Assembly: GCA_965243315.1 (NCBI GenBank)
Contig: CBDEUP010000007.1
Location: 1,833,668 to 1,897,667, forward strand
Length of the DNA: 64,000 nt
Source of the DNA: Alphaproteobacteria bacterium
GTDB lineage: Bacteria > Pseudomonadota > Alphaproteobacteria > UBA828
Direction: 5' to 3'
The first letter of the stretch is position 1; each line of letters starts with the position of its first letter. Shown in pieces: positions 5,056-24,864 of the stretch. The translations under genes were made by a program, and so were the position numbers. The notes under the pieces were generated by a model that worked only from the letters and a program-made list of their open reading frames with translations, did not search any database and was not told the origin of the DNA.

Positions 5056-7388
5056 CCGCGCGGCTGATCGGCGAGCCGGTCGAGCGGCGCGAGGATGCGC
5101 GCCTGCTCACCGGTCGCGCGCGCTTCATCGACGACATTCACCTGCCGGAGATGCTGCACGCCGCGGTGCTCCGCAGCCCTCACGCCAAGGCGCGCTTCAC
5201 GCGCATCGATGCCAGCGCGGCGCTCTCGCTTCCCGGCGTTCACGCGGTCATCACCCACGAGGACTTGGGCCCGGCCAACACACCCATGCCGCTCCTCAAC
5301 GAGGACCCCGGCTTCATCCATCCGCGCACCCATCGGGCGCTTGCGCCGGGGCAGGTTCGCTTCGTCGGTGAGCCGGTGGCGCTGGTGGTCGCAAAGAGCC
5401 GCTACCTGGCCGAAGACGCACTCGACCTGATCGAGGTCGACTATGCGCCCGAGGCGGCGGCGGTGGACCTCGTGGCGGCAGCAGAGTCAGGCGCGCCGCT
5501 GGTCCACGACGATACCGATTCCAACGTCGCCTGCCGCACCGCCGACAACACCGGCGATATCGAGAGCGCCTTCGCCGCCGCCGACTTCGTGCTGCGCGAG
5601 GAGCTCCGGCCCGAGCGGGGCGCCGCCCAGCCGATGGAGACCCGGGGCGTCGTCGCCCGCTACGACGCGAGCCTTGAGCAGCTCACGATCTGGGACACGA
5701 CCCAGGCGCCGATCAGTGCCCGCGGCGTCATCGCCGACAAGCTCGGCATGGCGGAAGCCGCCGTCACCGTGATCGCGCCTGACGTGGGCGGTGGCTTCGG
5801 CGTCAAGATCTATCTGGTTTACCCGGAGGAGGTGCTGGTCCCCTTCGCCGCCCGTCTGCTCGGCCGCCCCGTCAAATGGATCGAGGACCGCCGCGAGCAC
5901 TTCATCGGCTCCAACCACGAGCGGCTGATGGTGCACCACATCGAGGTGGCGGCGACCAAGGATGGGCGCATCCTCGGCATCAAGGACCACTTCCTCTACG
6001 ACAGCGGCGCCTACTGCCCCTACGGCCCCATCAACGCCCAGTGCGCCCAGGCCATCCTGCCGGGCCCCTACAAGATCCCGGCGGTGCACTCGACCTACGA
6101 GGCGGTCTACACCAACACGCCGACCGTGAGCCCCTACCGGGGTGCCGGCCAGCCACACGGCAACTTCGTCACCGAAGCGGCCATGAACCACGTGGCCCGC
6201 GCGCTCGGCCTGGATGCGGCCGAGACCAGGTGGCGCAATCTGGTGCGACCTGAGGACTGCCCCTGGGATTCTGGCCGCATCTTTCAGGGCAACACCCCGT
6301 TCATCCACCGCGATAGCGACTATCCCGCACAGCTCGCGAAGACACTCGACGCGCTCGACTATGCGGGCGTCAAGCGCGGCCAGCCGGCTGAGCGCGAGCA
6401 GGGAATCTTCCGCGGCGCCGGCATCGCCTTCTTCGTTGAAGGCACCGGCATCTCGCCCTACGAGGGGGTCGAGGTGCGGGTGGAGCCCACCGGCCACGTG
6501 CACGTGACGACGGGCTATCCCTCGCAAGGGCAGAGCCACCACACCACGCTTACGCAGATCGTGGCGGAGACCCTCGCCGTCCCGCCGGAGCAGGTGGTGG
6601 TGGAAAGCGGGCGGAGCGACCGCTTCGCCTGGGGCGTCGGCACCTTCGCCAGCCGTGCGGCCGTGGTGGGCGGCAACGCTGCGCTCGGTGCGGCCAAGGC
6701 GGTCCGGGCGCGGGCGCTCGACCTCGCTTCGGAGGAACTGGAGGCGGCGCTCGAAGACCTGGTACTGGCGGATGGGGCCGTGCATGTGAAAGGGGCGCCG
6801 CAAATGGCGGTGACGCTCGCCGCTCTTGCGTACGCGGCCAATCCCATCAACACGCTCGAATCGGGCGCAGAGCCGGGCCTCCGCGCCGCGGACTACTACC
6901 GCTCCCCCGATGGCGCGATAGCCAGCGGAGTCCACGGCGCGGTCGTGGTCGTGGATATCGCCACCGGCATGGTGGAGATCGAGACATACGTCGTGGTCCA
7001 CGACTGCGGGGTGATGATCAATCCCACCATCGTCGAGGGCCAGATACTGGGCGGCACGGCGCAGGGGATCGGCGGCGCCTTCTACGAGAAGCTCAGGTTC
7101 GACGAGGACGGCCAGCCGCTGGTGACCACCTTCATGGACTACCTGATCCCGACGGCCATGGAGATCCCGCCGATCGAGATCCACCACATGGAGAGCCGCT
7201 GCAGTCTCAACCCCCTGGGCGTCAAGGGGGTGGGGGAGGGCGGCGCGATCCCCGCTGCCGCGGCCTTCGCAGGGGCCGTGGAGGACGCGCTGGAGCCCTT
7301 CGGCGCGACCGTCCACGCCGTCCCCCTCGACCCGCCCGCCATCCTCGCGCTGATCGAGGGTCACGGCGGCAGCGGCGCGACTCCCTGA
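5052..7388 (+). CDS. molybdopterin-binding large subunit of xanthine dehydrogenase/CO dehydrogenase family (aldehyde oxidase/XDH a/b hammerhead + MoCo-binding)
   Basis: ATG at 5052 overlaps the small-subunit TGA (ATGA); starts MTARLIGEPVERREDARLLTGRARFIDD, typical of CoxL/XdhA N-termini; about 779 aa. The form-I CODH active-site signature (VAYRCSFR) is absent, so substrate unknown. The ORF-track start at 4872 is an upstream extension in the same frame. Confidence 0.9.
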   Translation: MTARLIGEPVERREDARLLTGRARFIDDIHLPEMLHAAVLRSPHAKARFTRIDASAALSLPGVHAVITHEDLGPANTPMPLLNEDPGFIHPRTHRALAPGQVRFVGEPVALVVAKSRYLAEDALDLIEVDYAPEAAAVDLVAAAESGAPLVHDDTDSNVACRTADNTGDIESAFAAADFVLREELRPERGAAQPMETRGVVARYDASLEQLTIWDTTQAPISARGVIADKLGMAEAAVTVIAPDVGGGFGVKIYLVYPEEVLVPFAARLLGRPVKWIEDRREHFIGSNHERLMVHHIEVAATKDGRILGIKDHFLYDSGAYCPYGPINAQCAQAILPGPYKIPAVHSTYEAVYTNTPTVSPYRGAGQPHGNFVTEAAMNHVARALGLDAAETRWRNLVRPEDCPWDSGRIFQGNTPFIHRDSDYPAQLAKTLDALDYAGVKRGQPAEREQGIFRGAGIAFFVEGTGISPYEGVEVRVEPTGHVHVTTGYPSQGQSHHTTLTQIVAETLAVPPEQVVVESGRSDRFAWGVGTFASRAAVVGGNAALGAAKAVRARALDLASEELEAALEDLVLADGAVHVKGAPQMAVTLAALAYAANPINTLESGAEPGLRAADYYRSPDGAIASGVHGAVVVVDIATGMVEIETYVVVHDCGVMINPTIVEGQILGGTAQGIGGAFYEKLRFDEDGQPLVTTFMDYLIPTAMEIPPIEIHHMESRCSLNPLGVKGVGEGGAIPAAAAFAGAVEDALEPFGATVHAVPLDPPAILALIEGHGGSGATP

Positions 7389-7802: not shown

Positions 7803-8987
7803 ATGGCCAAGCTGAAGTTCCGCACCATTTCCAAGCGTACCGTCGATGCGCTTGTCGTCGAGGACCGCGACGAGGTCTTCTGGGACGACCGCATTCCCGG
7901 CTTCGGGGTCCGGGTCTATCCGTCCGGGTCGAAGGTGTATGTCGTCCAGACCCGGCACAGGGGGAAGTCGCGCCGCGTGACGCTCGGGCGCCACGGGGTC
8001 ATGACCGCCGACGAGGCGCGCAAGAAGGCGGCCACGACCCTCAACCGCATGAGGAGCGGCGAGAACCCGGTGGAGCGGGGCTCGGTGACGGTGGCGGAGC
8101 TTGCCGCGCGCTATCTGGCGGAGCATGTCGACATGCGCTGCAAGGAGAGCACGCGGAAGGCGTACCGCAGGGCGGTCGAGCGCTTCATCGTGCCGTCCTA
8201 CGGAGATGTGGCGGTCGAGGACGTCGAGCGCGAGCACATCGACAAGCTGCACCGCGACCTCCACCACATTCCTTACCAGGCGAACCGGGCGCTGGAGATC
8301 GGGACCAGCCTGTTCAACTTCGCCGAGGAGTGGAAGCTGCGCAGCGGGGGCAACCCGTGCAAATACGTGCGCAAGTACCAGGAGAAGAAGCGCGAGCGGT
8401 TCCTGACCGAGGCGGAGTTCCGCCACCTGGGCGCGGTGCTGAACGAGATGGAGGCCGAGGGAAGGTTGCCGGTCTATCCGGCGGCGGCGATCCGGCTGCT
8501 GATGCTGACCGGGTGCCGGCGCAACGAGATCGTCGCGCTCGAATGGAAGCATGTCGATCTTGAGGCGGGCGAGTTGAAGCTCGCGGACTCGAAGACCGGT
8601 GCGCGGCTGGTGCCGCTGTCGCCGGCGGCGGCTCGGGTGCTGGCGGAGCTGCCGCGCATCGCGGGCAACCCGTGGGTCATTCCGGGCACGAAGCCCGGCA
8701 AACACCTTGCCGATCTCAACCATTACTGGGACCGGGTGCGGACGGAGGCGGACCTCGACGACGTGCGGCTTCATGACCTCCGCCACAGCTTCGCGTCCAG
8801 GGCGCTGGCGCTCGGCGAGAGCCTGTCGATGATCGGCAAGCTGCTCGGTCACAACAAGATCGAAACGACCTCGCGCTATGCGCATCTGGCGCGCGATTCG
8901 ATCAAGGCGTCGTCGGCGAAGGTGGCGGAGAGCATCGGCGCAGACATTCTCAACTCGCCGGTAACGGCGGAGACTGCCTCGGCCTGA
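7803..8987 (+). CDS. int: tyrosine-type site-specific integrase (P4-like, DUF4102 N-terminal arm-binding domain)
   Basis: 394 aa; N-terminus RTISKRTVDALVVEDRDEVFWDDRIPGFGVRVYPSGSKVYVVQTR; catalytic C-terminus HDLRHSFASRALALGESLSMIGKLLGHNKIETTSRYAHL (R..H..R..Y). Confidence 0.92.
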   Translation: MAKLKFRTISKRTVDALVVEDRDEVFWDDRIPGFGVRVYPSGSKVYVVQTRHRGKSRRVTLGRHGVMTADEARKKAATTLNRMRSGENPVERGSVTVAELAARYLAEHVDMRCKESTRKAYRRAVERFIVPSYGDVAVEDVEREHIDKLHRDLHHIPYQANRALEIGTSLFNFAEEWKLRSGGNPCKYVRKYQEKKRERFLTEAEFRHLGAVLNEMEAEGRLPVYPAAAIRLLMLTGCRRNEIVALEWKHVDLEAGELKLADSKTGARLVPLSPAAARVLAELPRIAGNPWVIPGTKPGKHLADLNHYWDRVRTEADLDDVRLHDLRHSFASRALALGESLSMIGKLLGHNKIETTSRYAHLARDSIKASSAKVAESIGADILNSPVTAETASA

Positions 8988-15216: not shown

Positions 15217-15891
15217 AACCGGCGTATGCTCCGGAGAAGCACGCTCGCTCCGCAATCCTGCTGTCGTCTCCTGTCCTCTCACGGCCTCTCAAGGGCACTG
15301 GAGGGCACGTCTGTCCCCCAATGGCGGGCCTTGCAGCGGGCTGCGTCCGGTGTGAGAACGACGCGCCGAAGGGCGTCCTGATCCTGCTTCCTTGACGCCC
15401 AAGCACTCGGGACATGGAAGCCGTTTTGTAACCGGCATTTAGCCCGAGCGGCGCTTGAGCGGCAGCGCCCGCCGCGCATGAGAGAGAACGGTCTACGAAC
15501 CGCCGCGCGGCATCCGACCGGTAGTGTAGGAAGCACGAGACGGCGAAGCAATTGCAAACCGACCCGCGCACTGGCCGGGTCATTCGTGCGGCCCGCGCTG
15601 TCGGCGACGGCGCGCACGATGCCCGGCGCGAAGTCGTGCCCGCTACGGCATCCGACCGTCGGTCCCTTCTCGCATTGTGCGGCGAACCGCGTGCGGCTAT
15701 CGGTGCGGCCATGCGATCATCGTCGCGCTTCAATGCTCAACGGTCGCCCGCGCCCAAGCCGCCGCAGTCGAGCTTGCGCGTCGCACGGGGCGACCGCATG
15801 GTGACGGGAACGGGAGGCGAGCGAGGAGACATGCGCCGATGAACAATGCCGCGTCATCAGAACGCGCGACCGGTCGGCACTGCCGATCGGT

Positions 15892-16922
15892 GTGCTCGTC
15901 GTCACGGTCGGCGCGATGACTCCGGGCGCGTTCATCGCCAAGTGGCGGGCGTCGGAGTTGAAGGAAAGCTCGGCGTCGCACGAACACTTCATCGACCTGT
16001 GCCGCCTGCTCGGCGAGCCGACGCCGGCGGAGGCCGACCCGGCGGGCGAGCGGTACTGCTTCGAGCGTGGCGCGCGGAAGGACACCGGCGGCGACGGCTG
16101 GGCCGACGTATGGAAGCGCGGCTTCTTCGCATGGGAGTACAAGGGCAAACGCGCGGACCTCGACGCGGCGTTCAATCAACTGCGGCAGTACGCGCTCGCG
16201 CTGGAGAATCCGCCGCTGCTGATCGTCTCGGACATGGCGCGGTTCCGCGTCCGCACCAACTGGACGAACAGCGTGAGCGTGACGCACGAGTTCACGCTCG
16301 ACGACCTCGCCGACGGCGCGACCCGCGACAAGCTCAAGTGGGCGATGTCGGACCCGGAGCGGCTGCGGCCCGGCGAGACGCGGCAGACGGTGACGGAGCG
16401 CGCGGCGGCAACCTTCGCGGAGCTTGCCCAAGGGTTGCGGGATCGGGGCCACGACCCGCAGACGGTGGCGCACTTCGTCAACCGTCTGGTGTTCTGCATG
16501 TTCGCCGAGGATGTCGGCCTGCTGCCCGGCGACATGTTCACCCGGATGCTGGAACAGGCATGCAGGCGGCCGGACGAGTTCGCTGAGCTTGCCCGCGACC
16601 TGTTCGGGGCAATGTCTGTCGGAGGCCGCGTCGGATTCGAGTCCGTGGCCTGGTTCAACGGCGGGCTGTTTGACGACGACACGGCGTTGCCGCTCGACCG
16701 GCAAGGAATCGAGACGGCGCTCAAGGCGGCGGCGCTCGACTGGTCGGAGATCGACCCGTCAATCCTCGGCACACTGTTCGAGCGCGGCCTCGACCCGGAC
16801 AAGCGTTCGCAGTTGGGCGCGCACTACACCGACCGCGACAAGATCATGCGGATCGTCGAGCCGGTGATCGTTCGGCCCCTGCTCGCGGAATGGGAGACGG
16901 CGAAGGCCGGGATCGCGGCTAC
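15892..16922 (+). CDS. MmeI-family type IIL restriction-modification enzyme, exon 1 (N-terminal PD-(D/E)XK endonuclease domain and linker)
   Basis: N-terminal FIAKWRASELKESSASHEHFIDLCRLLGEPTP...DVWKRGFFAWEYKGKRADLDAAFNQLRQYALALENPPLLIVSDMARFRV parallels the MmeI nuclease domain; LFERGLDPDKRSQLGAHYTDRDKIMRIVEPVI is the MmeI/PglX-family helical motif. The reading frame is interrupted after ...ETAKAGIAAT (codon AC|) by a group II intron starting GTGCG at 16923. Confidence 0.75.
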
Positions 16923-18839
16923 GTGCGCCAGGCTAACTGGTGACAGTGCAGCCGGTGAAAGTCCGGCAGGAGGGAGAAGATTAGCCATCACCTTCACCCC
17001 GAGTCATGGGCCGTCATCCGCGAGGATGGAGGTTAAGCGTTGACAGGGGCGCGTGCGGGCAGGGCTATTGAGCACCGAAAGAGATTTGGTCCGGGATGCC
17101 GAGGTCTTGTAGTCAACCGAAGGCAGCATCCGACCCACCGATTTGGCGAGGGGGGTCGGAATCCCGCGGTGTCGAAGAACCCACGCACGTACGTACGCAC
17201 TGCACCGGGACCTGGGAGGTCTCCATGCCATCCCGCTGTCGTGGCGGGATCGCAAAGGAAAGGAGGAATCCGCAACCGATGATGAACGGCATGGAGAAGT
17301 CAGACTCGGCCATAGTAGCCGCGAAGCCGGCGAACAATGGGGCGCCAGCCCCGGCGGAGCCGGTGGAGCCAAGGGCCGAGCCCAAGGGGAATCCGGGAAG
17401 CCAAAGCACGTGCCGGACGCAGGACCGGGAAAGCGTGACACAGGCGGCGGACCGGATACGGCAATTTGTACAACGGGAGCCACGGGTACGTCTCACGACG
17501 CTCCTTCACCACATCACGGTCGATGCGCTGCGCTGGGCGTTCTTCGAGTTGAAGAAGGACGCTGCGGCAGGCGCGGATGGCACAACGTGGCGGATGTACG
17601 AGGAAGGGCTGGAAGGCCGGCTGGCCGACCTGCACGACCGAGTACATTCGGGGGCGTACCGAGCGAGGCCATCACGGCGGGTGAACATACCGAAGCCGGA
17701 TGGCGGGACACGACCGCTCGGCGTCGCGGCCATAGAGGACAAGATAGTCCAGAAGGCGGTGGCGGAGATTATCCTGACGCCGATTTACGAGGCGGAGTTC
17801 CTGGGGTTCAGCTACGGGTTCCGGCCCGGGCGTGGAGCGCATGACGCGCTCGATGCGCTCGCGGTCGGCATTCAACGGCGCAAGATCAACTGGGTGGTGG
17901 ACGTTGACGTCCGCGCATTCTTCGACACGGTTTCGAGGGACTGGCTGGTCCGGTTCCTTGAGCACCGCATCGGGGACAAGCGGGTTATCAGGCTCATCAT
18001 CAAATGGTTGAACGCCGGCGTCATGGAAGCTGGAGAGTGGCGGGACAATCTGCGGGGAACGCCTCAAGGGTCGGTGGCTTCACCGATTCTGGCGAACGTC
18101 TACCTGCACTACGTCCTCGACCTGTGGTTCCAGAAGAAGTGGCGCAACCACGAAGTCGGAGGCGACACAATCATCGTGCGGTACGCGGATGATTTCGTGG
18201 TGGGTTTTCAGCACAAGCGGGATGCGGAGCGATTCCTGAATGCCATAAAGGAGCGGCTTGGAAACTTCGGCCTGGACATACACCCTGACAAGACCCGGCT
18301 CATTGAGTTCGGGCGGTTCGCCCATGGAAACCGTCGGCAACGAGGGCTGGGCAGACCGGAGACCTTCGACTTTCTGGGCTTCACGCACTACTGCACGGAG
18401 ACCAGACGGGGGTGCTTCATGTTGGGGCGCAAGCCGGTTGCCAAGCGGATGAGTCGCACCCTGAAACGGCTCAAGGAAGCGCTACGCAGGCGTATGCACA
18501 GCGACATGATTGGCACGGCAAGATGGCTAGGGAAGGTGGTCTCAGGCTGGCTGAACTACTTTGCGGTTCCGACCAGCCACCGCTATCTGCGCCGCTTCGT
18601 CGAACGCCTAAAGTGGCTGTGGTGCAGGAATGTGCGCCGCAGGTCGCAAAAGGACCGCTACAGTCTGGACCGTATCGCAGCGTTAGCACGGCAATACTGG
18701 CCCAAGCTGAAAATTCGACACCCATGGCCGGACCAGCGACTTGCCGTCAATTGAACCCAAGGGAGGAGCCGGATGCCCTAGCGGGCACGTCCGGATCTGC
18801 GCGGGGGGCGTGTGGGACAACCCGCGTTCCTACCGCAAT
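16923..18839 (+). mobile_element. group II intron (about 1.9 kb) inserted in the RM gene
   Basis: 5' end GTGCGCC; IEP ORF in domain IV; domain V GAGCCGGATGCCCTAGCGGGCACGTCCGGATCT (18766-18798) matches the GAGCCGTATG...CACGTACGGTTC consensus with compensatory changes; a ~40 nt domain VI then ends ...CGCAAT (AU). Removing 16923-18839 joins AC+C and restores the downstream MTase frame. Confidence 0.8.
17279..18754 (+). CDS. group II intron-encoded protein (reverse transcriptase/maturase; no HNH endonuclease domain seen)
   Basis: SD AGGAGGA 10 nt upstream of ATGATG; RT blocks TTLLHHITVDALRWAFFELKKDAAAGADGTTW, IPKPDGGTRPLGVAAIEDKIVQKAV, FLGFSYGFRPGRGAHDAL, IVRYADDFVVGF (YADD); C-terminal domain X WLNYFAVPTSHRYLRRF. 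The ORF track starts the frame earlier at 17096. Confidence 0.85.
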   Translation: MMNGMEKSDSAIVAAKPANNGAPAPAEPVEPRAEPKGNPGSQSTCRTQDRESVTQAADRIRQFVQREPRVRLTTLLHHITVDALRWAFFELKKDAAAGADGTTWRMYEEGLEGRLADLHDRVHSGAYRARPSRRVNIPKPDGGTRPLGVAAIEDKIVQKAVAEIILTPIYEAEFLGFSYGFRPGRGAHDALDALAVGIQRRKINWVVDVDVRAFFDTVSRDWLVRFLEHRIGDKRVIRLIIKWLNAGVMEAGEWRDNLRGTPQGSVASPILANVYLHYVLDLWFQKKWRNHEVGGDTIIVRYADDFVVGFQHKRDAERFLNAIKERLGNFGLDIHPDKTRLIEFGRFAHGNRRQRGLGRPETFDFLGFTHYCTETRRGCFMLGRKPVAKRMSRTLKRLKEALRRRMHSDMIGTARWLGKVVSGWLNYFAVPTSHRYLRRFVERLKWLWCRNVRRRSQKDRYSLDRIAALARQYWPKLKIRHPWPDQRLAVN

Positions 18840-20670
18840 CGTCGAACGCGCGGACGTGGCGGGTTCTCCGGCGGCGCAGACACGGCTACGGCGGCAGGCG
18901 GACCGGGCGCTGCGCACCTTCCTCGACCGGCTGCGGCAGTTCACCGTGCTCGACCCGGCCTGCGGGTCGGGGAACTTCCTGTATCTTGCGCTGCACGCGC
19001 TCAAGGACATCGAGCACCGGGTCCAGCTCGAAGCGGAGACGCTCGGCCTTGCGCGCGGGTTCCCGGCGGTCGGCCCGGCGAACGTGAAGGGAATCGAGAT
19101 CAACGCCTACGCCGCCGAGCTTGCCCGCGTGTCGGTGTGGATCGGCGAAATCCAGTGGATGCGGCGCAACGGGTTCAGCAATTCGACCAATCCGATTCTC
19201 GATCCGCTCGACACCATCGAATGCCGCGATGCGGTCCTTTCGCCCGACGGAGGACAACCGGACTGGCCCGACGCCGACGCCGTGATCGGCAACCCGCCGT
19301 TTCTGGGCGACCGGGTGATGCGGGACGGACTCGGCCACGACTATACAGAGCGCCTGCGCCGCGCCTATCGCGGTTCCGTCCCGGCGTCCGCAGATCTTGT
19401 TTGCTACTGGTTCCACAAGGCAGGCCAGCTAATCGCCGGAGAGAAGATCGCCCGCGTCGGTCTGGTCTCCACCAACTCGATCCGCGGCGGAAATAACCGG
19501 GCGGTACTCGACCGGATCGTCGAGGACAGCGCCATTTTTGACGCTTGGTCCGACGAACCCTGGGTTATCGACGGTGCGGCGGTGCGGGTCTCGCTGGTCT
19601 GCTTCGCGCCGAAGGGCGCCGACCTGCCCGTTACGCTGGACGGTGCCGCGGCGGCGCGCATCAACCCAGACCTGACAGGCGGGGGCCTCGACCTCACGCA
19701 AGCGGCGGGACTGCCCGCAAACCGTGCTGTTGCCTTCCTTGGCGTCAATAAGAATGGCGCTTTCGACATTCCGGGGGATGTTGCGCGGGAATGGCTGGGC
19801 CTGCCCGCCAACCCGAACGGGCGTCCGAACGCCGATGTCTTGAAGCCTCGGATCGTCGGAATGGATGTGGTGCGCCGGTCATCCGACCAATGGATTATCG
19901 ACTTCGGCGTTTCCATGACCGAAGCCGAGGCTGCACTCTACGAAGCCCCGTTCGCTCATGTTGCGGAGCATGTGAAGCCGGTACGGGCGACCAACCGAAT
20001 CAAGGCGCTTAGGGAAGAATGGTGGCGACACTCGCGGCCCCGTCCGGCGATGTGGCGGGCCGTAAGCGGCATGAAACGCTTCATCGCGACGCCGACCCTT
20101 GCAAAGCATCGGCTGTTCGTCTGGCTCGATGCGGGCGTCTGTCCCGACCATCAGTTGATCGTCATCGCCCGCGACGACGACGTGACCTTCGGCATCTTGC
20201 ACAGCCGGTTTCACGAGGCATGGTCGCTGCGGTTGGGGACCTGGCTCGGCAAAGGGAACGATCCGCGCTACACGCCGACCACCACCTTCGAGACCTTCCC
20301 CTTCCCGGACGGCCTCTCGCCGGATATTCCCGCCGCAGACTATGCGGAAGACTCCCGCGCCGTCGCCATCGCCGAGGCCGCAAGGCGATTGGTCGAGTTG
20401 CGCGACCGCTGGCTCAACCCGCCCGAATGGGTGGAATGGATCGACGAACCCGTTCCCGGCTATCCGAAACGTACTGTCCCCCGCGACGAGGCGGCGGCAA
20501 AGGAACTCAAGGCCCGCACGCTGACAAACCTGTACAATGCCCGCCCGCAATGGCTGACCGACGCGCACTCGGCACTTGATGCCGTTGTCGCTGCGGCCTA
20601 CGGATGGGACAAGAGGATCAACGACAATGTGGCAATGAACAAATTGCTCACGCTAAATCTGACAAGATAG
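18840..20670 (+). CDS. MmeI-family type IIL RM enzyme, exon 2 (gamma-class N6-adenine methyltransferase and target-recognition domain)
   Basis: After the junction reads VERADVAGSPAAQTRLRRQADRALRTFLDRLRQFTVLDPACGSGNFL (SAM motif I) ... DAVIGNPPFLGD (motif IV NPPF). The spliced product would be about 945-953 aa, similar to MmeI (919 aa). Confidence 0.75.
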
Positions 20671-20705
20671 AACGCCGCCGCCAACCGTAAGTGTAGGAGC
20701 CAGTT

Positions 20706-21659
20706 ATGGCGCAAAGTAAGTCCAAGAGTTTCTTAGGCCGAGAAACTCGCGAGTATGTTGATTTCATTATTGGTGTCGATGATTCCGGGAAAACAATTAC
20801 GTATACCTCAAATCCGAGTGCGTTGGCGAATTTTTTTGGTGCAAACCCAAACGCTCCGAATTTCCTAACCCAAGTTCATTTCCGAAGGGATGTGCTGGAC
20901 AAGTATTATCAGAAACCGAGCACATACTCGGTGAAAAGCGGGATTCTGCATGGCGGTCATGAGTGGGGGTTGCCAATGGACAACAACCACGAGGACAAGG
21001 TTTGTGCGTGGTTGGGTGATCTTGGTCGCATTCCCTACGACGAGCAACTCCACTGGCGGGCACACAACATTCCGCCCAGCGGTACGTTAAGCGAGACTTT
21101 CTACGCCAATCAAATCTTGGCAACGCCAACAGATTCAAACCGCCCAGACCATCTGTTTATGAGAAGTTACGACAAATTGCAGAAGGTGTGGGGAGAGAAT
21201 CTAAGTTGGTCCGTTCTGGTTCCCTTGAGCTCTGACGATAGCCATCATCTGCAAACCCTGAGGATTCCGTCTACTGAGGAACAACGTGAGTTCGATGAGT
21301 TAGTGCTGAGTCTCACAAAGGTACTGATTGATTCAATCAACGAAAAGAAGTTGAAAGAAGTGATTCCAGAATTATGCAATGATAGCAGCACCTCTGGACT
21401 CAATGTTCTAGAACGCGCATTGCAGAGCATCGGAATCGAAAATTTTTCCATCCACATTCATTACCTGAGAAAGCTCCAGGCGCTAAGGTCAGCGGGTGTA
21501 GCGCACAGGAAAGGGAAACGATATGAAAAACTGTCTAGTGAGCTTGGCATAGGAAGCAAGAGTTTTCGCGTGGTGTTCGCGGAACTTCTAGAAGGTGGAA
21601 CAGACTACTTGGATTTTCTCACTTCTGTGGCGAATGATTGCCGCATGCACTCATCCTGA
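20706..21659 (+). CDS. hypothetical protein, conspicuously low-GC, 36 nt downstream of the RM gene
   Basis: 317 aa; no motif I can recognise; Lys/Asn/Ser-rich and locally ~45% GC against ~68% surroundings; same strand as the RM gene and probably co-transcribed. Confidence 0.5.
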   Translation: MAQSKSKSFLGRETREYVDFIIGVDDSGKTITYTSNPSALANFFGANPNAPNFLTQVHFRRDVLDKYYQKPSTYSVKSGILHGGHEWGLPMDNNHEDKVCAWLGDLGRIPYDEQLHWRAHNIPPSGTLSETFYANQILATPTDSNRPDHLFMRSYDKLQKVWGENLSWSVLVPLSSDDSHHLQTLRIPSTEEQREFDELVLSLTKVLIDSINEKKLKEVIPELCNDSSTSGLNVLERALQSIGIENFSIHIHYLRKLQALRSAGVAHRKGKRYEKLSSELGIGSKSFRVVFAELLEGGTDYLDFLTSVANDCRMHSS

Positions 21660-21699
21660 ATGCTAGAAAACTCGTGCCCCGTTCTTGGACCCGCTGATT

Positions 21700-22926
21700 T
21701 CAGAACCAGCGCCCGCATATACGGCGAGCGCGGGGACTGGAAGGCGACGGCGTGTCGTGGAGTTTCATCGCTTCTGCGATGATGCTCCCGACGTTCTCCG
21801 CTGTTTCGACCAGATGGCCGTCGGCAAGGTGCGCATAACCCGCAGTAGTCTCGTGCCTGCGATGGCCGAGCAGCTTGCCCACGAGCGGCAGGTTTTCGCC
21901 CGACATGACGGCGTGGCTCGCCGCCGTGTGCCGCAAATCGTGCAGCCGGACCTTGCCGAGCTTCGCGTCGTCGCAGACCGCTCGCCAGCAGTTGACAATC
22001 CGGTGTGCGTGTCTGCCCCCGGCGAGGTTCGGAAACAGGAACGCATCGGGGTCGCGTGGGCCGGGCAGTGCCGCGATGACCGCCCGCGCGGCTTCGCCGA
22101 GCGGCACGCTGCGCGGTCCAGTCTTGCTATCGCGCAAGGCGATGGCGTTCTCTCCGATGTGGCGCCAGCGGAGATTAAGCACTTCGCCCCGGCGGCAGCC
22201 GGTGAGCGCCAGCAGGCGGATGGCGGCGACAGCCTCGGGTCGTTTGTCCTCGCGGGCGTCGAGCGCCCGCCCGAGCCGGGCGAGTTCGTCGGTGTCGAGG
22301 AACCGGGCGATGTTGCGCCTCGGGTTCTTCCTGATGCCGAGACAGGGATTGGTGCCCGGCTCGCGGAAGCCGTATTCCTCGGCCCGGAACATCATGGAGC
22401 GCAGTATCTCGAAGGCGCGGTTGGCCGCGCCGGGCCGGTCCCGGCTCGCTTCGTCGAACCACGCGGCCACATCCTCCGGGCCGACGCGCTCCACCGGCAT
22501 CTTGCCGAAGGCAGGCAGGATGCGGGCCTTGAGATAGATGCGGATGGTCTTGCGTCCCGACGGCTTCCAGTAGGGATCGCAGCGCCGGAGATACTCATCG
22601 GCCAGCATGGCCACGGTCGGGGCCGTCTTCTCCTTGCGGATGTCGTCGGCGGGATTGTCGCCCGCCTGGATGCGCGCGAGGATATCGCGGGCGCGGCGGC
22701 GGGCATGCGCCAGGTCCATCTCCCCGTAACGGGCGATGACGATGCGCCGGGACTTCCCCTCGATGCGGGTCTGCACGATCCACGCCTTCGCACCGGACCG
22801 GTGGACGCGCAACCCGAAGCCGGGCAGCGCCCGGTCGAACAGGAACACGTCCCGGTCGTCGGGTTCGGTCTTGCGGGCCAGCTTGGCGGTGAGGTCAACC
22901 GTCGGCATGATCGCACCCTCCCTCAT
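21700..22926 (-). CDS. tyrosine-type integrase (DUF4102 N-terminal domain)
   Basis: 408 aa; DLTAKLARKTEPDDRDVFLFDRALPGFGLRVHRSGAKAWIVQTR; C-terminus RLHDLRHTAASHAVMSGENLPLVGKLLGHRRHETTAGYAHL. Confidence 0.9.
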   Translation of the reverse strand: MREGAIMPTVDLTAKLARKTEPDDRDVFLFDRALPGFGLRVHRSGAKAWIVQTRIEGKSRRIVIARYGEMDLAHARRRARDILARIQAGDNPADDIRKEKTAPTVAMLADEYLRRCDPYWKPSGRKTIRIYLKARILPAFGKMPVERVGPEDVAAWFDEASRDRPGAANRAFEILRSMMFRAEEYGFREPGTNPCLGIRKNPRRNIARFLDTDELARLGRALDAREDKRPEAVAAIRLLALTGCRRGEVLNLRWRHIGENAIALRDSKTGPRSVPLGEAARAVIAALPGPRDPDAFLFPNLAGGRHAHRIVNCWRAVCDDAKLGKVRLHDLRHTAASHAVMSGENLPLVGKLLGHRRHETTAGYAHLADGHLVETAENVGSIIAEAMKLHDTPSPSSPRARRICGRWF

Positions 22927-24085
22927 TCACCGCACCGCTACCGGCCAGAGCCGCCCCGATGCGCCCGGACACCCGGTCGGCGGCCTCGGCAACCGAGCGG
23001 TCGGACAGGTGGACGTATCGCTCGGTCGTCTCGACCAGCGCGTGACCCAACAGCTTCGCGATGCTCACCATGTCCACGCCGTTCATGGCGGCGACCGAGG
23101 CCCACGAATGTCTGAGGTCATGAAGCCGCAGGCCGGGCAAGCCCGCCTCGGCGCGGATGCGGTCCCACTGGAAGGCGATGTTGTCGACGGGCCGCGTCGG
23201 CGGGCGGGCGGGAAACAGATACGGGCAATCCGCGCTGTAGCGCGGGATGGCGTCGATCACCGCCCGCGCGGCGCCGGACAACCAGACCGTGCGCGGCCCG
23301 GATTTCGAATCGGGCAGGAAGATGCGCCGGTCCCTGATCCAGTCCCATTCGAGCGCGGCGATCTCGCCGAAGCGGCAGCCGGTCAGCATCAGCAGGCGGA
23401 CGATGGCCACGACATCGGGGCAGCGGAACTCGTCGCGGGTCAGCACGACGTTGAGCCGGACCATTTCCTCCGCCGTCAGGAACCGCTCCTTGGCCTGGGT
23501 CTTGTAGCGCCGCGTATTTTTGCAGGGATTGGAGTTGTGCCGGCGGTATCCCCAAAGCTCGGCCATGCGCATCATGACGGACAGGGTGGGCATGGCGCGG
23601 TTGGCGTTGCCGGGCTTGTCGGCCATGGATGCGAACCAGTCCCGGACGTTCTCGACAGTGATGGCGTCCACCGTCATATGCCCGAAGGCGGGCAAGATGT
23701 GGTTGCGGACGACGTAGGTGCTGGCCGTCAGGGTCTTGGGCTTCCAGTGCCGCGCGTAGCGTTCGAGAAACTCCTCGGCGAACGCGGCCATGGGGTGTCC
23801 CGGCGTCTTCGGGCCGCTGCCCTTTACCTCCGGTTCGATGTAGCTCTCGATCAGCCTGCGGGCCTCGCGCCGCGCCTCGGGGATCGTCATGGCGTCGGCG
23901 CTGCCGATGGTGGCGTATCGCCTGCGCCCGCGCACCATGCGGGCGAGGAAGAAGGTCCGGACTCCGGTGGGCTGGATGGAAAGCGCCAGTCCACTCACCA
24001 CGTCGTCGCGGACTTCGTACTTGGCAGTTCTTGGCTTTGCGGCGCGGACGCGCCGGGCGAAGGTGGATTTGGTCTGGTCGCTCAT
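22895..24085 (-). CDS. tyrosine-type integrase, tandem to and overlapping the previous one by 32 nt
   Basis: 396 aa; YEVRDDVVSGLALSIQPTGVRTFFLARMVRGRRRYATIG; C-terminus LRLHDLRHSWASVAAMNGVDMVSIAKLLGHALVETTERYVHL. Confidence 0.9.
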   Translation of the reverse strand: MSDQTKSTFARRVRAAKPRTAKYEVRDDVVSGLALSIQPTGVRTFFLARMVRGRRRYATIGSADAMTIPEARREARRLIESYIEPEVKGSGPKTPGHPMAAFAEEFLERYARHWKPKTLTASTYVVRNHILPAFGHMTVDAITVENVRDWFASMADKPGNANRAMPTLSVMMRMAELWGYRRHNSNPCKNTRRYKTQAKERFLTAEEMVRLNVVLTRDEFRCPDVVAIVRLLMLTGCRFGEIAALEWDWIRDRRIFLPDSKSGPRTVWLSGAARAVIDAIPRYSADCPYLFPARPPTRPVDNIAFQWDRIRAEAGLPGLRLHDLRHSWASVAAMNGVDMVSIAKLLGHALVETTERYVHLSDRSVAEAADRVSGRIGAALAGSGAVNEGGCDHADG

Positions 24086-24864
24086 GGTCGCGGCTCCCTG
24101 TTCGGGCCGCGCGGCTGGCCGGTAATGCAGGAAGCAGCCGCGGCGGCGTTTCGTCGGGGATGCCGCGAGGCGGTGCGGGACCGATGGAACCGTAAGGCCC
24201 TGCTATTGCAGGGTTTTCCGGCTACTCATGCGGTGGCGGGCGGAGGCAGGATTGGCACCGTCGGTGCGTCCGGTGTGGTTCCAAAGCCCGCCCCGGCGGG
24301 TCAGAGGCCATGAATCTGCTGAATTTTCCAAGGGGGAATGGACGCCGGAGAACCCGGCAGGGTGAAGCCGCCGCGGCGCTGAGCGGCGGGGCGTGCCGTC
24401 ACGAACCGGGACGGTCGCGCCCGGCGAGGTGACGGAGGCGCCGATGGTGGAACCCGCCCGATGCCGGTCGCACCTGCATCGGGTTCTGTGGAGGCCGGCA
24501 ACGGCGACGCGCGCGATGATCGCGATGACGACCGCGACCACGGTCACCAGCGCCGTGCATCGTGTCGTGCACGATGATCGGCGCATTAGCCGACGCGCTA
24601 TGCGAAGCATGGTGCGGAGGCGACCGACAGGACGGGCGATCGCGAGTCCCGTCGCGGTGTCCGCCGTGGCGATCAAGTCGGCGATCATGATCGCCGACAG
24701 CGCCGAGGGTGGGAGCGAGTAGCGCGAGCGGATCGGTGTGAGCGGCAGCGAACGCACTGGTGATCGGCGAATCCCCCGGATCGTGGTCCGGGGGCAGGCA
24801 TCGCCCGGCGAGCGCGGCGCGAAGCGCGCGCGAGGAAGACGGCGCCGCCGCAACGCCGTCGGTC

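Follow-up and report, generated by a model that had tools for sequence, protein, structure and literature searches.

An MmeI-linked gene of an unnamed protein family: a candidate HEPN effector and natural N-terminal deletion variant

What is the low-GC gene that stands between a restriction-modification (RM) gene and two integrase genes in the genome of an alphaproteobacterium, and what role would fit that position? The gene, here called X, is an open reading frame (ORF) at positions 20706–21659 of the window, by which we mean the whole stretch of 64,000 nucleotides (nt) analysed (Alphaproteobacteria bacterium, UBA828; assembly GCA_965243315.1, contig CBDEUP010000007.1, positions 1,833,668–1,897,667 of the forward strand). 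The gene upstream of it encodes an MmeI-like type IIG RM enzyme. We file X as a probable RM-linked HEPN effector of an unnamed family and a natural N-terminal deletion variant. The explanation we favour, with a probability of roughly 55%, is that it is a HEPN-type, PrrC-like second-line anti-phage effector kept behind the MmeI-like gene. Loci and proteins used for comparison carry L- and P-numbers, respectively.

The six-frame ORF list and the translation gave a forward-strand ORF of 317 amino acids (aa) on the same strand as the RM gene, as the preliminary description had it. The start codon is ATG, with a ribosome-binding site (AGGAG, 20695–20699) 6 nt 5′ of it, and an in-frame TAG four codons 5′ of the ATG rules out a longer N-terminus. 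The close linkage to the RM gene was also described correctly, although the distance from its stop codon (20670) to the ATG is 35 nt and not 36 nt. Scanning of the interval between the two genes for promoter-like or terminator-like sites found none. As the gap is only 35 nt, contains the AGGAG site and has no intervening promoter or terminator, the MmeI-like gene and X apparently share one transcript. An RNA structure test of the junction found nothing significant (z-score 0.93).

The GC content of X is 0.474 (0.52 at third codon positions, GC3), compared with 0.65 (GC3 0.78) in the upstream MmeI-like exon and about 0.70 in the rest of the window, so the low GC noted at the outset is real. The protein had also been called Lys/Asn/Ser-rich, which holds only in part: Ser (10.7%) and Lys (5.7%) are above the values for the neighbouring protein, but the composition is not strikingly rich in Lys, Asn (5.0%) or Ser, and Leu reaches 11.4%.

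A short form of a large unannotated family

X had been taken for an orphan, which it is not. A single search returned at least 450 homologues at E≤1e-3, and an exhaustive profile search found 2,460 family clusters at 50% identity, including 966 with E≤1e-30. The usual length of the proteins is about 552 aa, and nearly all are between 530 and 565 aa. Full-length members consist of an N-terminal domain of about 230 aa, a beta-rich middle domain and a C-terminal HEPN-like four-helix domain. X, with the middle and HEPN-like domains, is a short form made up of the C-terminal 58% (about 318 residues) of the usual 552-aa protein. It aligns with residues 235–546 of P0083 (552 aa) at 51% identity, and begins exactly at the conserved PLPKSKSG linker in the family alignment (A1).

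A total of 162 genome loci spanning many phyla were confirmed by tblastn, and the hosts include Planctomycetota, Poribacteria, Latescibacterota, Chloroflexota, Proteobacteria and one Methanosaeta. At all 80 of the 80 species-representative genome loci the long form is present, with its N- and C-terminal parts contiguous. In a Poribacteria genome (L047) the match to the N-domain (6024–6668) and the match to the C-terminal part (8001–8966) are about 1.3 kb apart, which suggests an insertion or disruption inside that family gene. A Rhodospirillaceae metagenome-assembled genome is the source of a cluster-mate of the 98%-identical protein. Each of the 14 matches in RefSeq plasmids is annotated as a hypothetical protein, and only distant long forms were found when the JGI metagenomes were scanned for close relatives of the short form. 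In the viral collections there were three matches in IMG/VR and none in GenBank phages.

None of the curated collections recognised the family. X had nothing meaningful in Pfam, NCBIfam, PADLOC or PHROG even at E≤10; the long forms searched against Pfam and PADLOC, and remote relatives searched against Pfam, had no match at that level either. A Pfam scan of 71 family members gave zero matches of any kind, and no PADLOC model matched four long forms and X. When the PDB was searched by sequence with the family profile, only chance matches were recovered (e.g. doublecortin, E ~0.3).

The short form is not confined to the window. At least 12 diverged lineages have intact ORFs of 312–322 aa for which a start codon and a ribosome-binding site were recruited. 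Neighbour-joining placed the short forms in one clade (bootstrap 80), with the long form P0010 as its sister (bootstrap 100); next to branch were the long forms at L028 and L036 (bootstrap 71). Five of six short-form lineages have the same junction upstream of the start (...ccaaccg-aa-tgtaggaa-cagtc-ATG/GTG), and the sixth (L002) has a shorter version. In the window the junction occupies 20671–20705 on the forward strand and, from comparison within the short-form clade, contains the AGGAG site together with relic codons of the deleted N-domain boundary: an in-frame V*EPV that corresponds to LVEPL of the long forms, just 5′ of PKSKSG. Because the short forms are monophyletic and share a junction with relic codons, the sequences point to one ancestral deletion that removed the N-domain, in a lineage that was already linked to MmeI.

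Whether the product of this deletion is a gene or debris can be judged from its divergence. The ratio of nonsynonymous to synonymous divergence (dN/dS) was 0.17 for the window copy versus L101, 0.24 for the window copy versus L002 and 0.14 for L003 versus L103; the synonymous divergence of more distant short-form pairs is saturated. Values of 0.14–0.24 therefore indicate a functional gene under purifying selection, and X retains all of the family-invariant residues. The alternative, in which a full-length gene is decaying and X is what is left of it, with a reading frame that happens to be intact, draws on the missing N-terminal ~234 residues, present in all 80 genome-representative homologues, and on the neighbouring MmeI genes, which look damaged in L003, L102, L103 and L004. 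However, some of the apparent damage comes from long-read assemblies of low coverage, where sequencing error is a possible cause, and the intact ORFs in diverged lineages, the dN/dS values and the retained invariant residues all speak against decay. We disfavour it and regard it as very improbable. As judged from these comparisons, X appears to be a working gene whose product belongs to a very large, unannotated family (~552-aa proteins) and has lost its N-terminal part.

Plasmids of Streptomyces carry a 276-aa homologue that covers family residues 283–549 only; in S. longwoodensis (L106, 5970–6800) it adjoins a DUF4238 gene. This is apparently an independent and even shorter stand-alone form, and suggests that the C-terminal module can stand alone.

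Predicted domains of X and of the long form

The AlphaFold2 model of X (pLDDT, the predicted local confidence score, 80.7) has strands within residues 19–102 and helices at 193–209, 231–242, 247–266 and 287–310. These four helices are modelled as a HEPN-like up-down bundle, forming a domain of about residues 190–310 (21273–21635, forward strand). The preliminary description had recognised no motif in the protein. An Rx5H motif is present, in the sequence LRSAGVAHRKG (21483–21515, forward strand), in which R261, S262, A266, H267, R268, K269 and G270 are invariant in the 31 sequences of alignment A1 (LRSxxxAHRKG). The Arg, the His and a Gly of the motif are still invariant in relatives that share only 24–28% identity. 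The active site of HEPN domains is described as an Rx4-6H motif at the C-terminus of helix 3, together with an acidic residue that is conserved within helix 2 (Anantharaman et al. 2013, PMC3710099). In the model, the Rx5H of X is placed at the C-terminal end of helix 3 (247–266), and E236, conserved in at least 90% of sequences, is in helix 2 (231–242) and may correspond to the acidic residue. On account of the invariant Rx5H where helix 3 ends and of the acidic E236 in helix 2, the C-terminal domain of X is probably HEPN-like, and the putative active-site residues R261 and H267 are predicted to form a metal-independent ribonuclease (RNase) site.

The beta-rich middle domain (about residues 15–135, 20748–21110, forward strand) was delimited by the invariant columns of A1, which include ANFFGANP, WLGDLG and PYDEQLHW, and by the AlphaFold2 strands. 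It is the most conserved part of the family, both in A1 and across the relatives of 24–28% identity, and its fold has no assignment. That conservation peaks in this domain and not in the helical one is what might be expected if X were a non-catalytic HEPN-like binder of nucleic acid or a ligand, of the MtlR type, which modulates the expression or activity of the MmeI-like enzyme. HEPN domains without catalysis do exist, but families of this kind typically lose the motif (PMC3710099), while the Arg and His of Rx5H are invariant down to 24–28% identity. Most family members also have no RM neighbour to regulate, and we consider a purely binding role to be quite improbable.

The N-domain that X lacks gave a fold match to SeAvs3 (PDB 8DGC) and looks restriction-endonuclease-like, Cap4-like and beta-rich. 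A search that used the short form did not return this match, which must therefore stem from residues 1–234. The effector domain of SeAvs3 is a Cap4-like PD-(D/E)xK nuclease, and the match would fall on this nuclease domain of the 2,028-aa chain. The superfamily-invariant residues of the N-domain are only W62, F104, G106, Y111, E113, G140, F175 and G225. The only conserved acidic residues are E113 and D/E176, no Lys is invariant and there is no conserved D...(E/Q)xK triad. We did not adopt an active nuclease as the explanation for the N-domain, given that a conserved catalytic triad is missing; without an invariant Lys or triad, it may be a non-catalytic DNA-binding or sensing module.

Linkage to restriction-modification genes, base composition and a possible role

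That X would have a conserved RM partner on a small mobile module was suggested at the outset and is borne out in the short-form clade. An MmeI-like gene is directly upstream of X at five of the six short-form loci taken from other assemblies (L001, L002, L003, L101 and L102). It is intact in L001 (953 aa, with MmeI_N, MmeI_hel, MmeI_Mtase and MmeI_TRD domains) and L002 (962 aa), interrupted by the contig end in L101, and frameshifted or split in L003 and L102, which are long-read assemblies where sequencing error is possible. At L103/L104 a decayed MmeI remnant was found together with the common junction. The nearest long forms are linked in the same way. Intact MmeI orthologues, 76–78% identical to that of L001, are upstream of the long forms at L028 and L036, and an 88-aa MmeI_C relic is upstream of the sister long form P0010 (L004/L005). 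As L028, L036 and P0010 are also MmeI-linked, the linkage is older than the truncation. The relic consists of the MmeI C-terminal domain only and lies 10 nt upstream of P0010 (7724–7990 in L004, 1217–1483 in L005). It was seen in two records, an ENA scaffold and the Logan assembly of run SRR13587055, with dnaE directly upstream and the rest of MmeI gone.

Across the family the picture is more mixed. Among 77 immediate upstream neighbours there were seven Type ISP, six HsdS, four HsdM and three MmeI genes (20/77, ~26%). Three loci (L013, L023 and L057) are confirmed hsdM..X..hsdR operons, and at L019 and L020 Type ISP-like enzymes end 17–670 nt upstream. On the downstream side, HsdR, DndC, type II methyltransferases and AbiEii are among the neighbours. 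At least 16 HEPN clades have been linked to RM systems (Anantharaman et al. 2013, PMC3710099), and the genomic context of the family is the one known from RM-linked HEPN proteins such as PrrC.

Other surroundings were also seen. In plasmid pPma4326F of P. syringae pv. maculicola (L105, 6887–8467) a 526-aa member is the first cargo gene after gmtY-VPA1269-gmtX, and defence genes are reported to be abundant in the cargo of such gamma-mobile-trio elements. At L103 (1642–4483) the opposite-strand genes that follow the short-form X carry Abi_C and weak HEPN_AbiV domains, and this region looks like a small defence island.

The codon usage of X had been read as a mark of recent acquisition, and the comparison of loci contradicts this. 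In all MmeI–X pairs (GC3 was compared in the window, L001–L004, L028, L036 and L101–L103), the GC content of X is 0.41–0.48 and its GC3 about 0.39–0.52, while the MmeI genes have a GC content of 0.63–0.69 and a GC3 of 0.73–0.87. The synonymous divergence (dS) between L001 and L002 is 0.64 for X and 0.70 for MmeI, and the similar values indicate that the pair has co-diverged while the gap in composition stayed. The GC3 gap (~0.5 versus ~0.8) persists across loci from dS ~0.65 to saturation, and the gene has a lower GC content than its flanks at 72 of 75 family loci, by a mean of 8 points. The low GC of X is a long-lived property and not a timestamp of acquisition, and if X is a defence gene it is a caution against dating such genes from composition.

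A few family copies have a GC content of 0.65, hence a GC-rich encoding of the protein is possible. One possible cause of the low GC is selection for AT-richness, which would keep a toxic gene silenced or little expressed, and frequent replacement of alleles out of an AT-rich pool is another. Between long-form and short-form loci the amino acid identity is 48% for X and 76% for MmeI; with X diverging far more than MmeI, allele replacement may have occurred.

The reading that we favour joins the predicted domain to the linkage. X would dimerise via its HEPN domain, with R261 and H267 forming a metal-independent RNase site, and would be held inactive until infection, possibly until the RM enzyme is bypassed or inhibited. 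When a phage bypasses or disables the enzyme, X would cleave cellular or phage RNA, possibly transfer RNA (tRNA), and the cleavage would abort the infection and so provide a second line of defence, following the logic of PrrC with EcoprrI. The HEPN-like fold and the invariant Rx5H agree with such an effector role. What is inferred here is the RNase activity, the abortive outcome and any regulation of X by the MmeI-like enzyme or jointly with it.

Several observations weigh against an RM-coupled HEPN effector. The residue that follows the Arg of the motif is Ser (the invariant S262 of A1) or, in remote relatives, Ser or Thr, which is polar but is not the Asn, Asp or His typical of HEPN domains. 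The curated HEPN profiles of Pfam, NCBIfam and PADLOC did not match X or the long forms up to E≤10, and Foldseek with the predicted structure, which had been proposed as a route to identification, found nothing in the PDB at E<0.1. With the N-domain, the short form has lost an entire domain that is conserved elsewhere in the family, and its activity or regulation may differ as a result. About 74% of the family (57/77) has no RM gene as the immediate upstream neighbour, and X persists where MmeI has decayed (L103/L104) or has been reduced to a relic (L004). The coupling of X to RM genes may, in view of these other neighbours and of the persistence of X without MmeI, be positional and not mechanistic.

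The last points are those on which the main rival explanation is built. It holds that X is an autonomous single-gene defence system or toxin, and that its position next to RM genes reflects clustering of defence genes and hitchhiking, with no sensing or regulation by MmeI. The 57 of 77 members without an upstream RM gene fit this well, as do the members found as gamma-mobile-trio cargo or beside Dnd, AbiE and other defence genes. Moreover, X is intact and constrained where MmeI has decayed (L103/L104; dN/dS of 0.14 for L003 versus L103), and embedding may bring a selfish benefit, as the transfer of embedded and surrounding systems is linked (Payne et al.). Set against this, the family is partnered with Type I, Type ISP and Type IIG enzymes, which are three different RM architectures, often within the operon (hsdM..X..hsdR), and the tight junction has been kept by the whole MmeI-linked lineage through saturated synonymous divergence. 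We regard full autonomy as possible but somewhat unlikely.

A role as an anti-restriction protein or as a specificity modulator of the type IIG enzyme had also been put forward. The position right after the RM gene is what speaks for it, and we found nothing else pointing to either function. Profile scans of X gave no anti-restriction family and no target recognition domain, the family also occurs with unrelated RM types and with no RM gene at all, and it is almost absent from viruses (three matches in IMG/VR, none in GenBank phages). We give this proposal hardly any credence.

A more elaborate version of the favoured reading combines three proposals: that the part in sensing or regulation once played by the deleted N-domain passed in trans to the MmeI-like enzyme, so that the short X is a HEPN RNase activated by the state of the type IIG enzyme; that the AT-rich coding sequence was selected as a brake on expression or a target for silencing; and that the ~552-aa family is a new and widespread single-gene anti-phage system. 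Taken jointly these are unlikely. If the takeover in trans were true, it would amount to a PrrC-like relay from restriction to suicide with a wholly different partner and no ATPase.

If X is an RM-linked HEPN effector, a very large, phylum-spanning and unannotated family would join the known anti-phage effectors, and the PrrC-style linkage of RM and RNase genes would extend to Type IIG and Type ISP systems. The same HEPN module, with and without the N-domain behind orthologous MmeI-like enzymes, would then constitute a natural experiment that bears on sensing by the N-domain and on its possible replacement by the RM enzyme.

The mobile module and known systems

The order of RM gene, X and two integrase genes was reported correctly, with the integrases on the strand opposite to X. 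The whole unit (15342–24277) was delimited by blastn of L001 against the window and is about 91% identical to it at the nucleotide level; without the intron described below it is about 7 kb. The fetched flanks (about 10 kb on each side) are unmatched, and the MmeI–X–integrase–integrase unit therefore has the look of a separate mobile element. Near both ends there is an inverted repeat of 20 nt (15496–15515 and 24158–24177) with 90% complementarity. In the part of the window from 10 to 32 kb, no tRNA gene that might serve as an attachment site was found.

The MmeI-like gene is on the forward strand in two exons. Exon 1 (15892–16922) was identified by tblastn with the 953-aa L001 orthologue (aa 1–360, 88% identity). 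Exon 2 (18834–20670) encodes the methyltransferase, the target recognition domain and the C-terminus, with matches to MmeI_Mtase (5.6e-31) in Pfam and to REase_MTase_IIG (3.6e-186) in PADLOC; the match to MmeI_TRD (E 1e-05, 25.4 bits) just missed the Pfam cutoff of 27 bits. Joined together, the exons form an uninterrupted in-frame ORF of 955 aa with no stops, and the matches in the window together with the intact L001 orthologue show the domains of an MmeI-type enzyme in one polypeptide. Between the exons is a group II intron (GTGCG...CTAC, 16923–18833, forward strand; Rfam RF02005, 176 bits, 16958–17181), with a reverse transcriptase/maturase ORF inside it (17096–18754, forward strand; TIGR04416, 1.3e-105). 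The exact ends of the intron are inferred. A 17-nt complementary pair (16906–16922 and 17315–17331) resembles intron–exon binding sites, and the L001 counterpart of the gene is without the intron.

Comparison with L001 also showed that conservation is uneven along the module. Positions 19241–20240, which overlap the target recognition domain, are 65–78% identical, whereas the DNA on either side, including X, is 92–99.5% identical and X itself 97.5–99.5%. This looks like a specificity domain that was swapped by recombination in an otherwise near-identical module.

Both tyrosine integrase genes are on the reverse strand. The first (21700–22926; Phage_integrase, 5.8e-19, and Arm-DNA-bind_3) is convergent with X, and the second (22895–24085; Phage_integrase, 1.9e-19) overlaps it. 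They are arranged in tandem with the same domain architecture and share 56 nt at 77% identity (22184–22239 and 23364–23419), which suggests that they arose by an old duplication.

Several characterised systems were compared with the X family. DARNA was rejected as a match: its HEPN domain is N-terminal, its C-domain is alpha-helical and it has 456 aa, so the domain order is opposite. GAPS1, GAPS4 and GAPS6 were set aside since their domains differ from those of the family. The PADLOC candidate models from the study of embedded defences gave no match, and nothing relevant was found in the literature on MmeI together with HEPN.

The closest named analogue is ApeA, a single-gene HEPN anticodon nuclease (Ec2ApeA, bioRxiv 10.64898/2026.01.26.701840), which is similar in size to the X family (about 550–580 aa) and is likewise built of three parts, the last being a HEPN domain rich in insertions with HepT (5YEP/7AE8) as its nearest structure. 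In UniProt two family members are named 'ApeA N-terminal domain-containing protein'. However, the N and Mid domains of ApeA are alpha-helical, while those of the X family are beta-rich. Homology to ApeA was rejected, as hhalign of profiles A4 and A1 against Ec2ApeA, recovered for this purpose from an E. coli genome (L107:2501–4249), gave probabilities of 0.1–0.5%; nor did any ApeA model match in the scans with Pfam (71 members) or PADLOC (four long forms and X). The HepT/HEPN toxins of HEPN-MNT modules (5YEP, 7AE2, 8XDJ) share only 4–16% sequence identity with X, which differs from them in being without an MNT antitoxin partner and in carrying helical insertions and a further domain, conserved and about 120 aa long. 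The Cap4-like PD-(D/E)xK nuclease domain of SeAvs3 (8DGC) and HamA would have a counterpart only in the part deleted from X, and in the long forms that counterpart lacks the triad.

The system that the favoured reading takes as its model is PrrC, an anticodon nuclease whose gene is embedded in the EcoprrI type Ic hsdMSR locus. X has no sequence similarity to PrrC models. The N-terminal ABC-ATPase of PrrC has no equivalent in the X family, where a restriction-endonuclease-like N-domain and a novel middle domain are found instead, and the partner of X is a single-chain MmeI-like type IIG enzyme. What the two would have in common is a C-terminal HEPN-type domain with an Rx4-6H motif, a gene embedded in or adjoining RM genes (X follows the MmeI-like gene after 35 nt) and, plausibly, the logic of a second-line defence that works through abortive infection. 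PrrC is held inactive by its RM enzyme and released by anti-restriction factors, and we propose by analogy that X may be controlled in a similar way.

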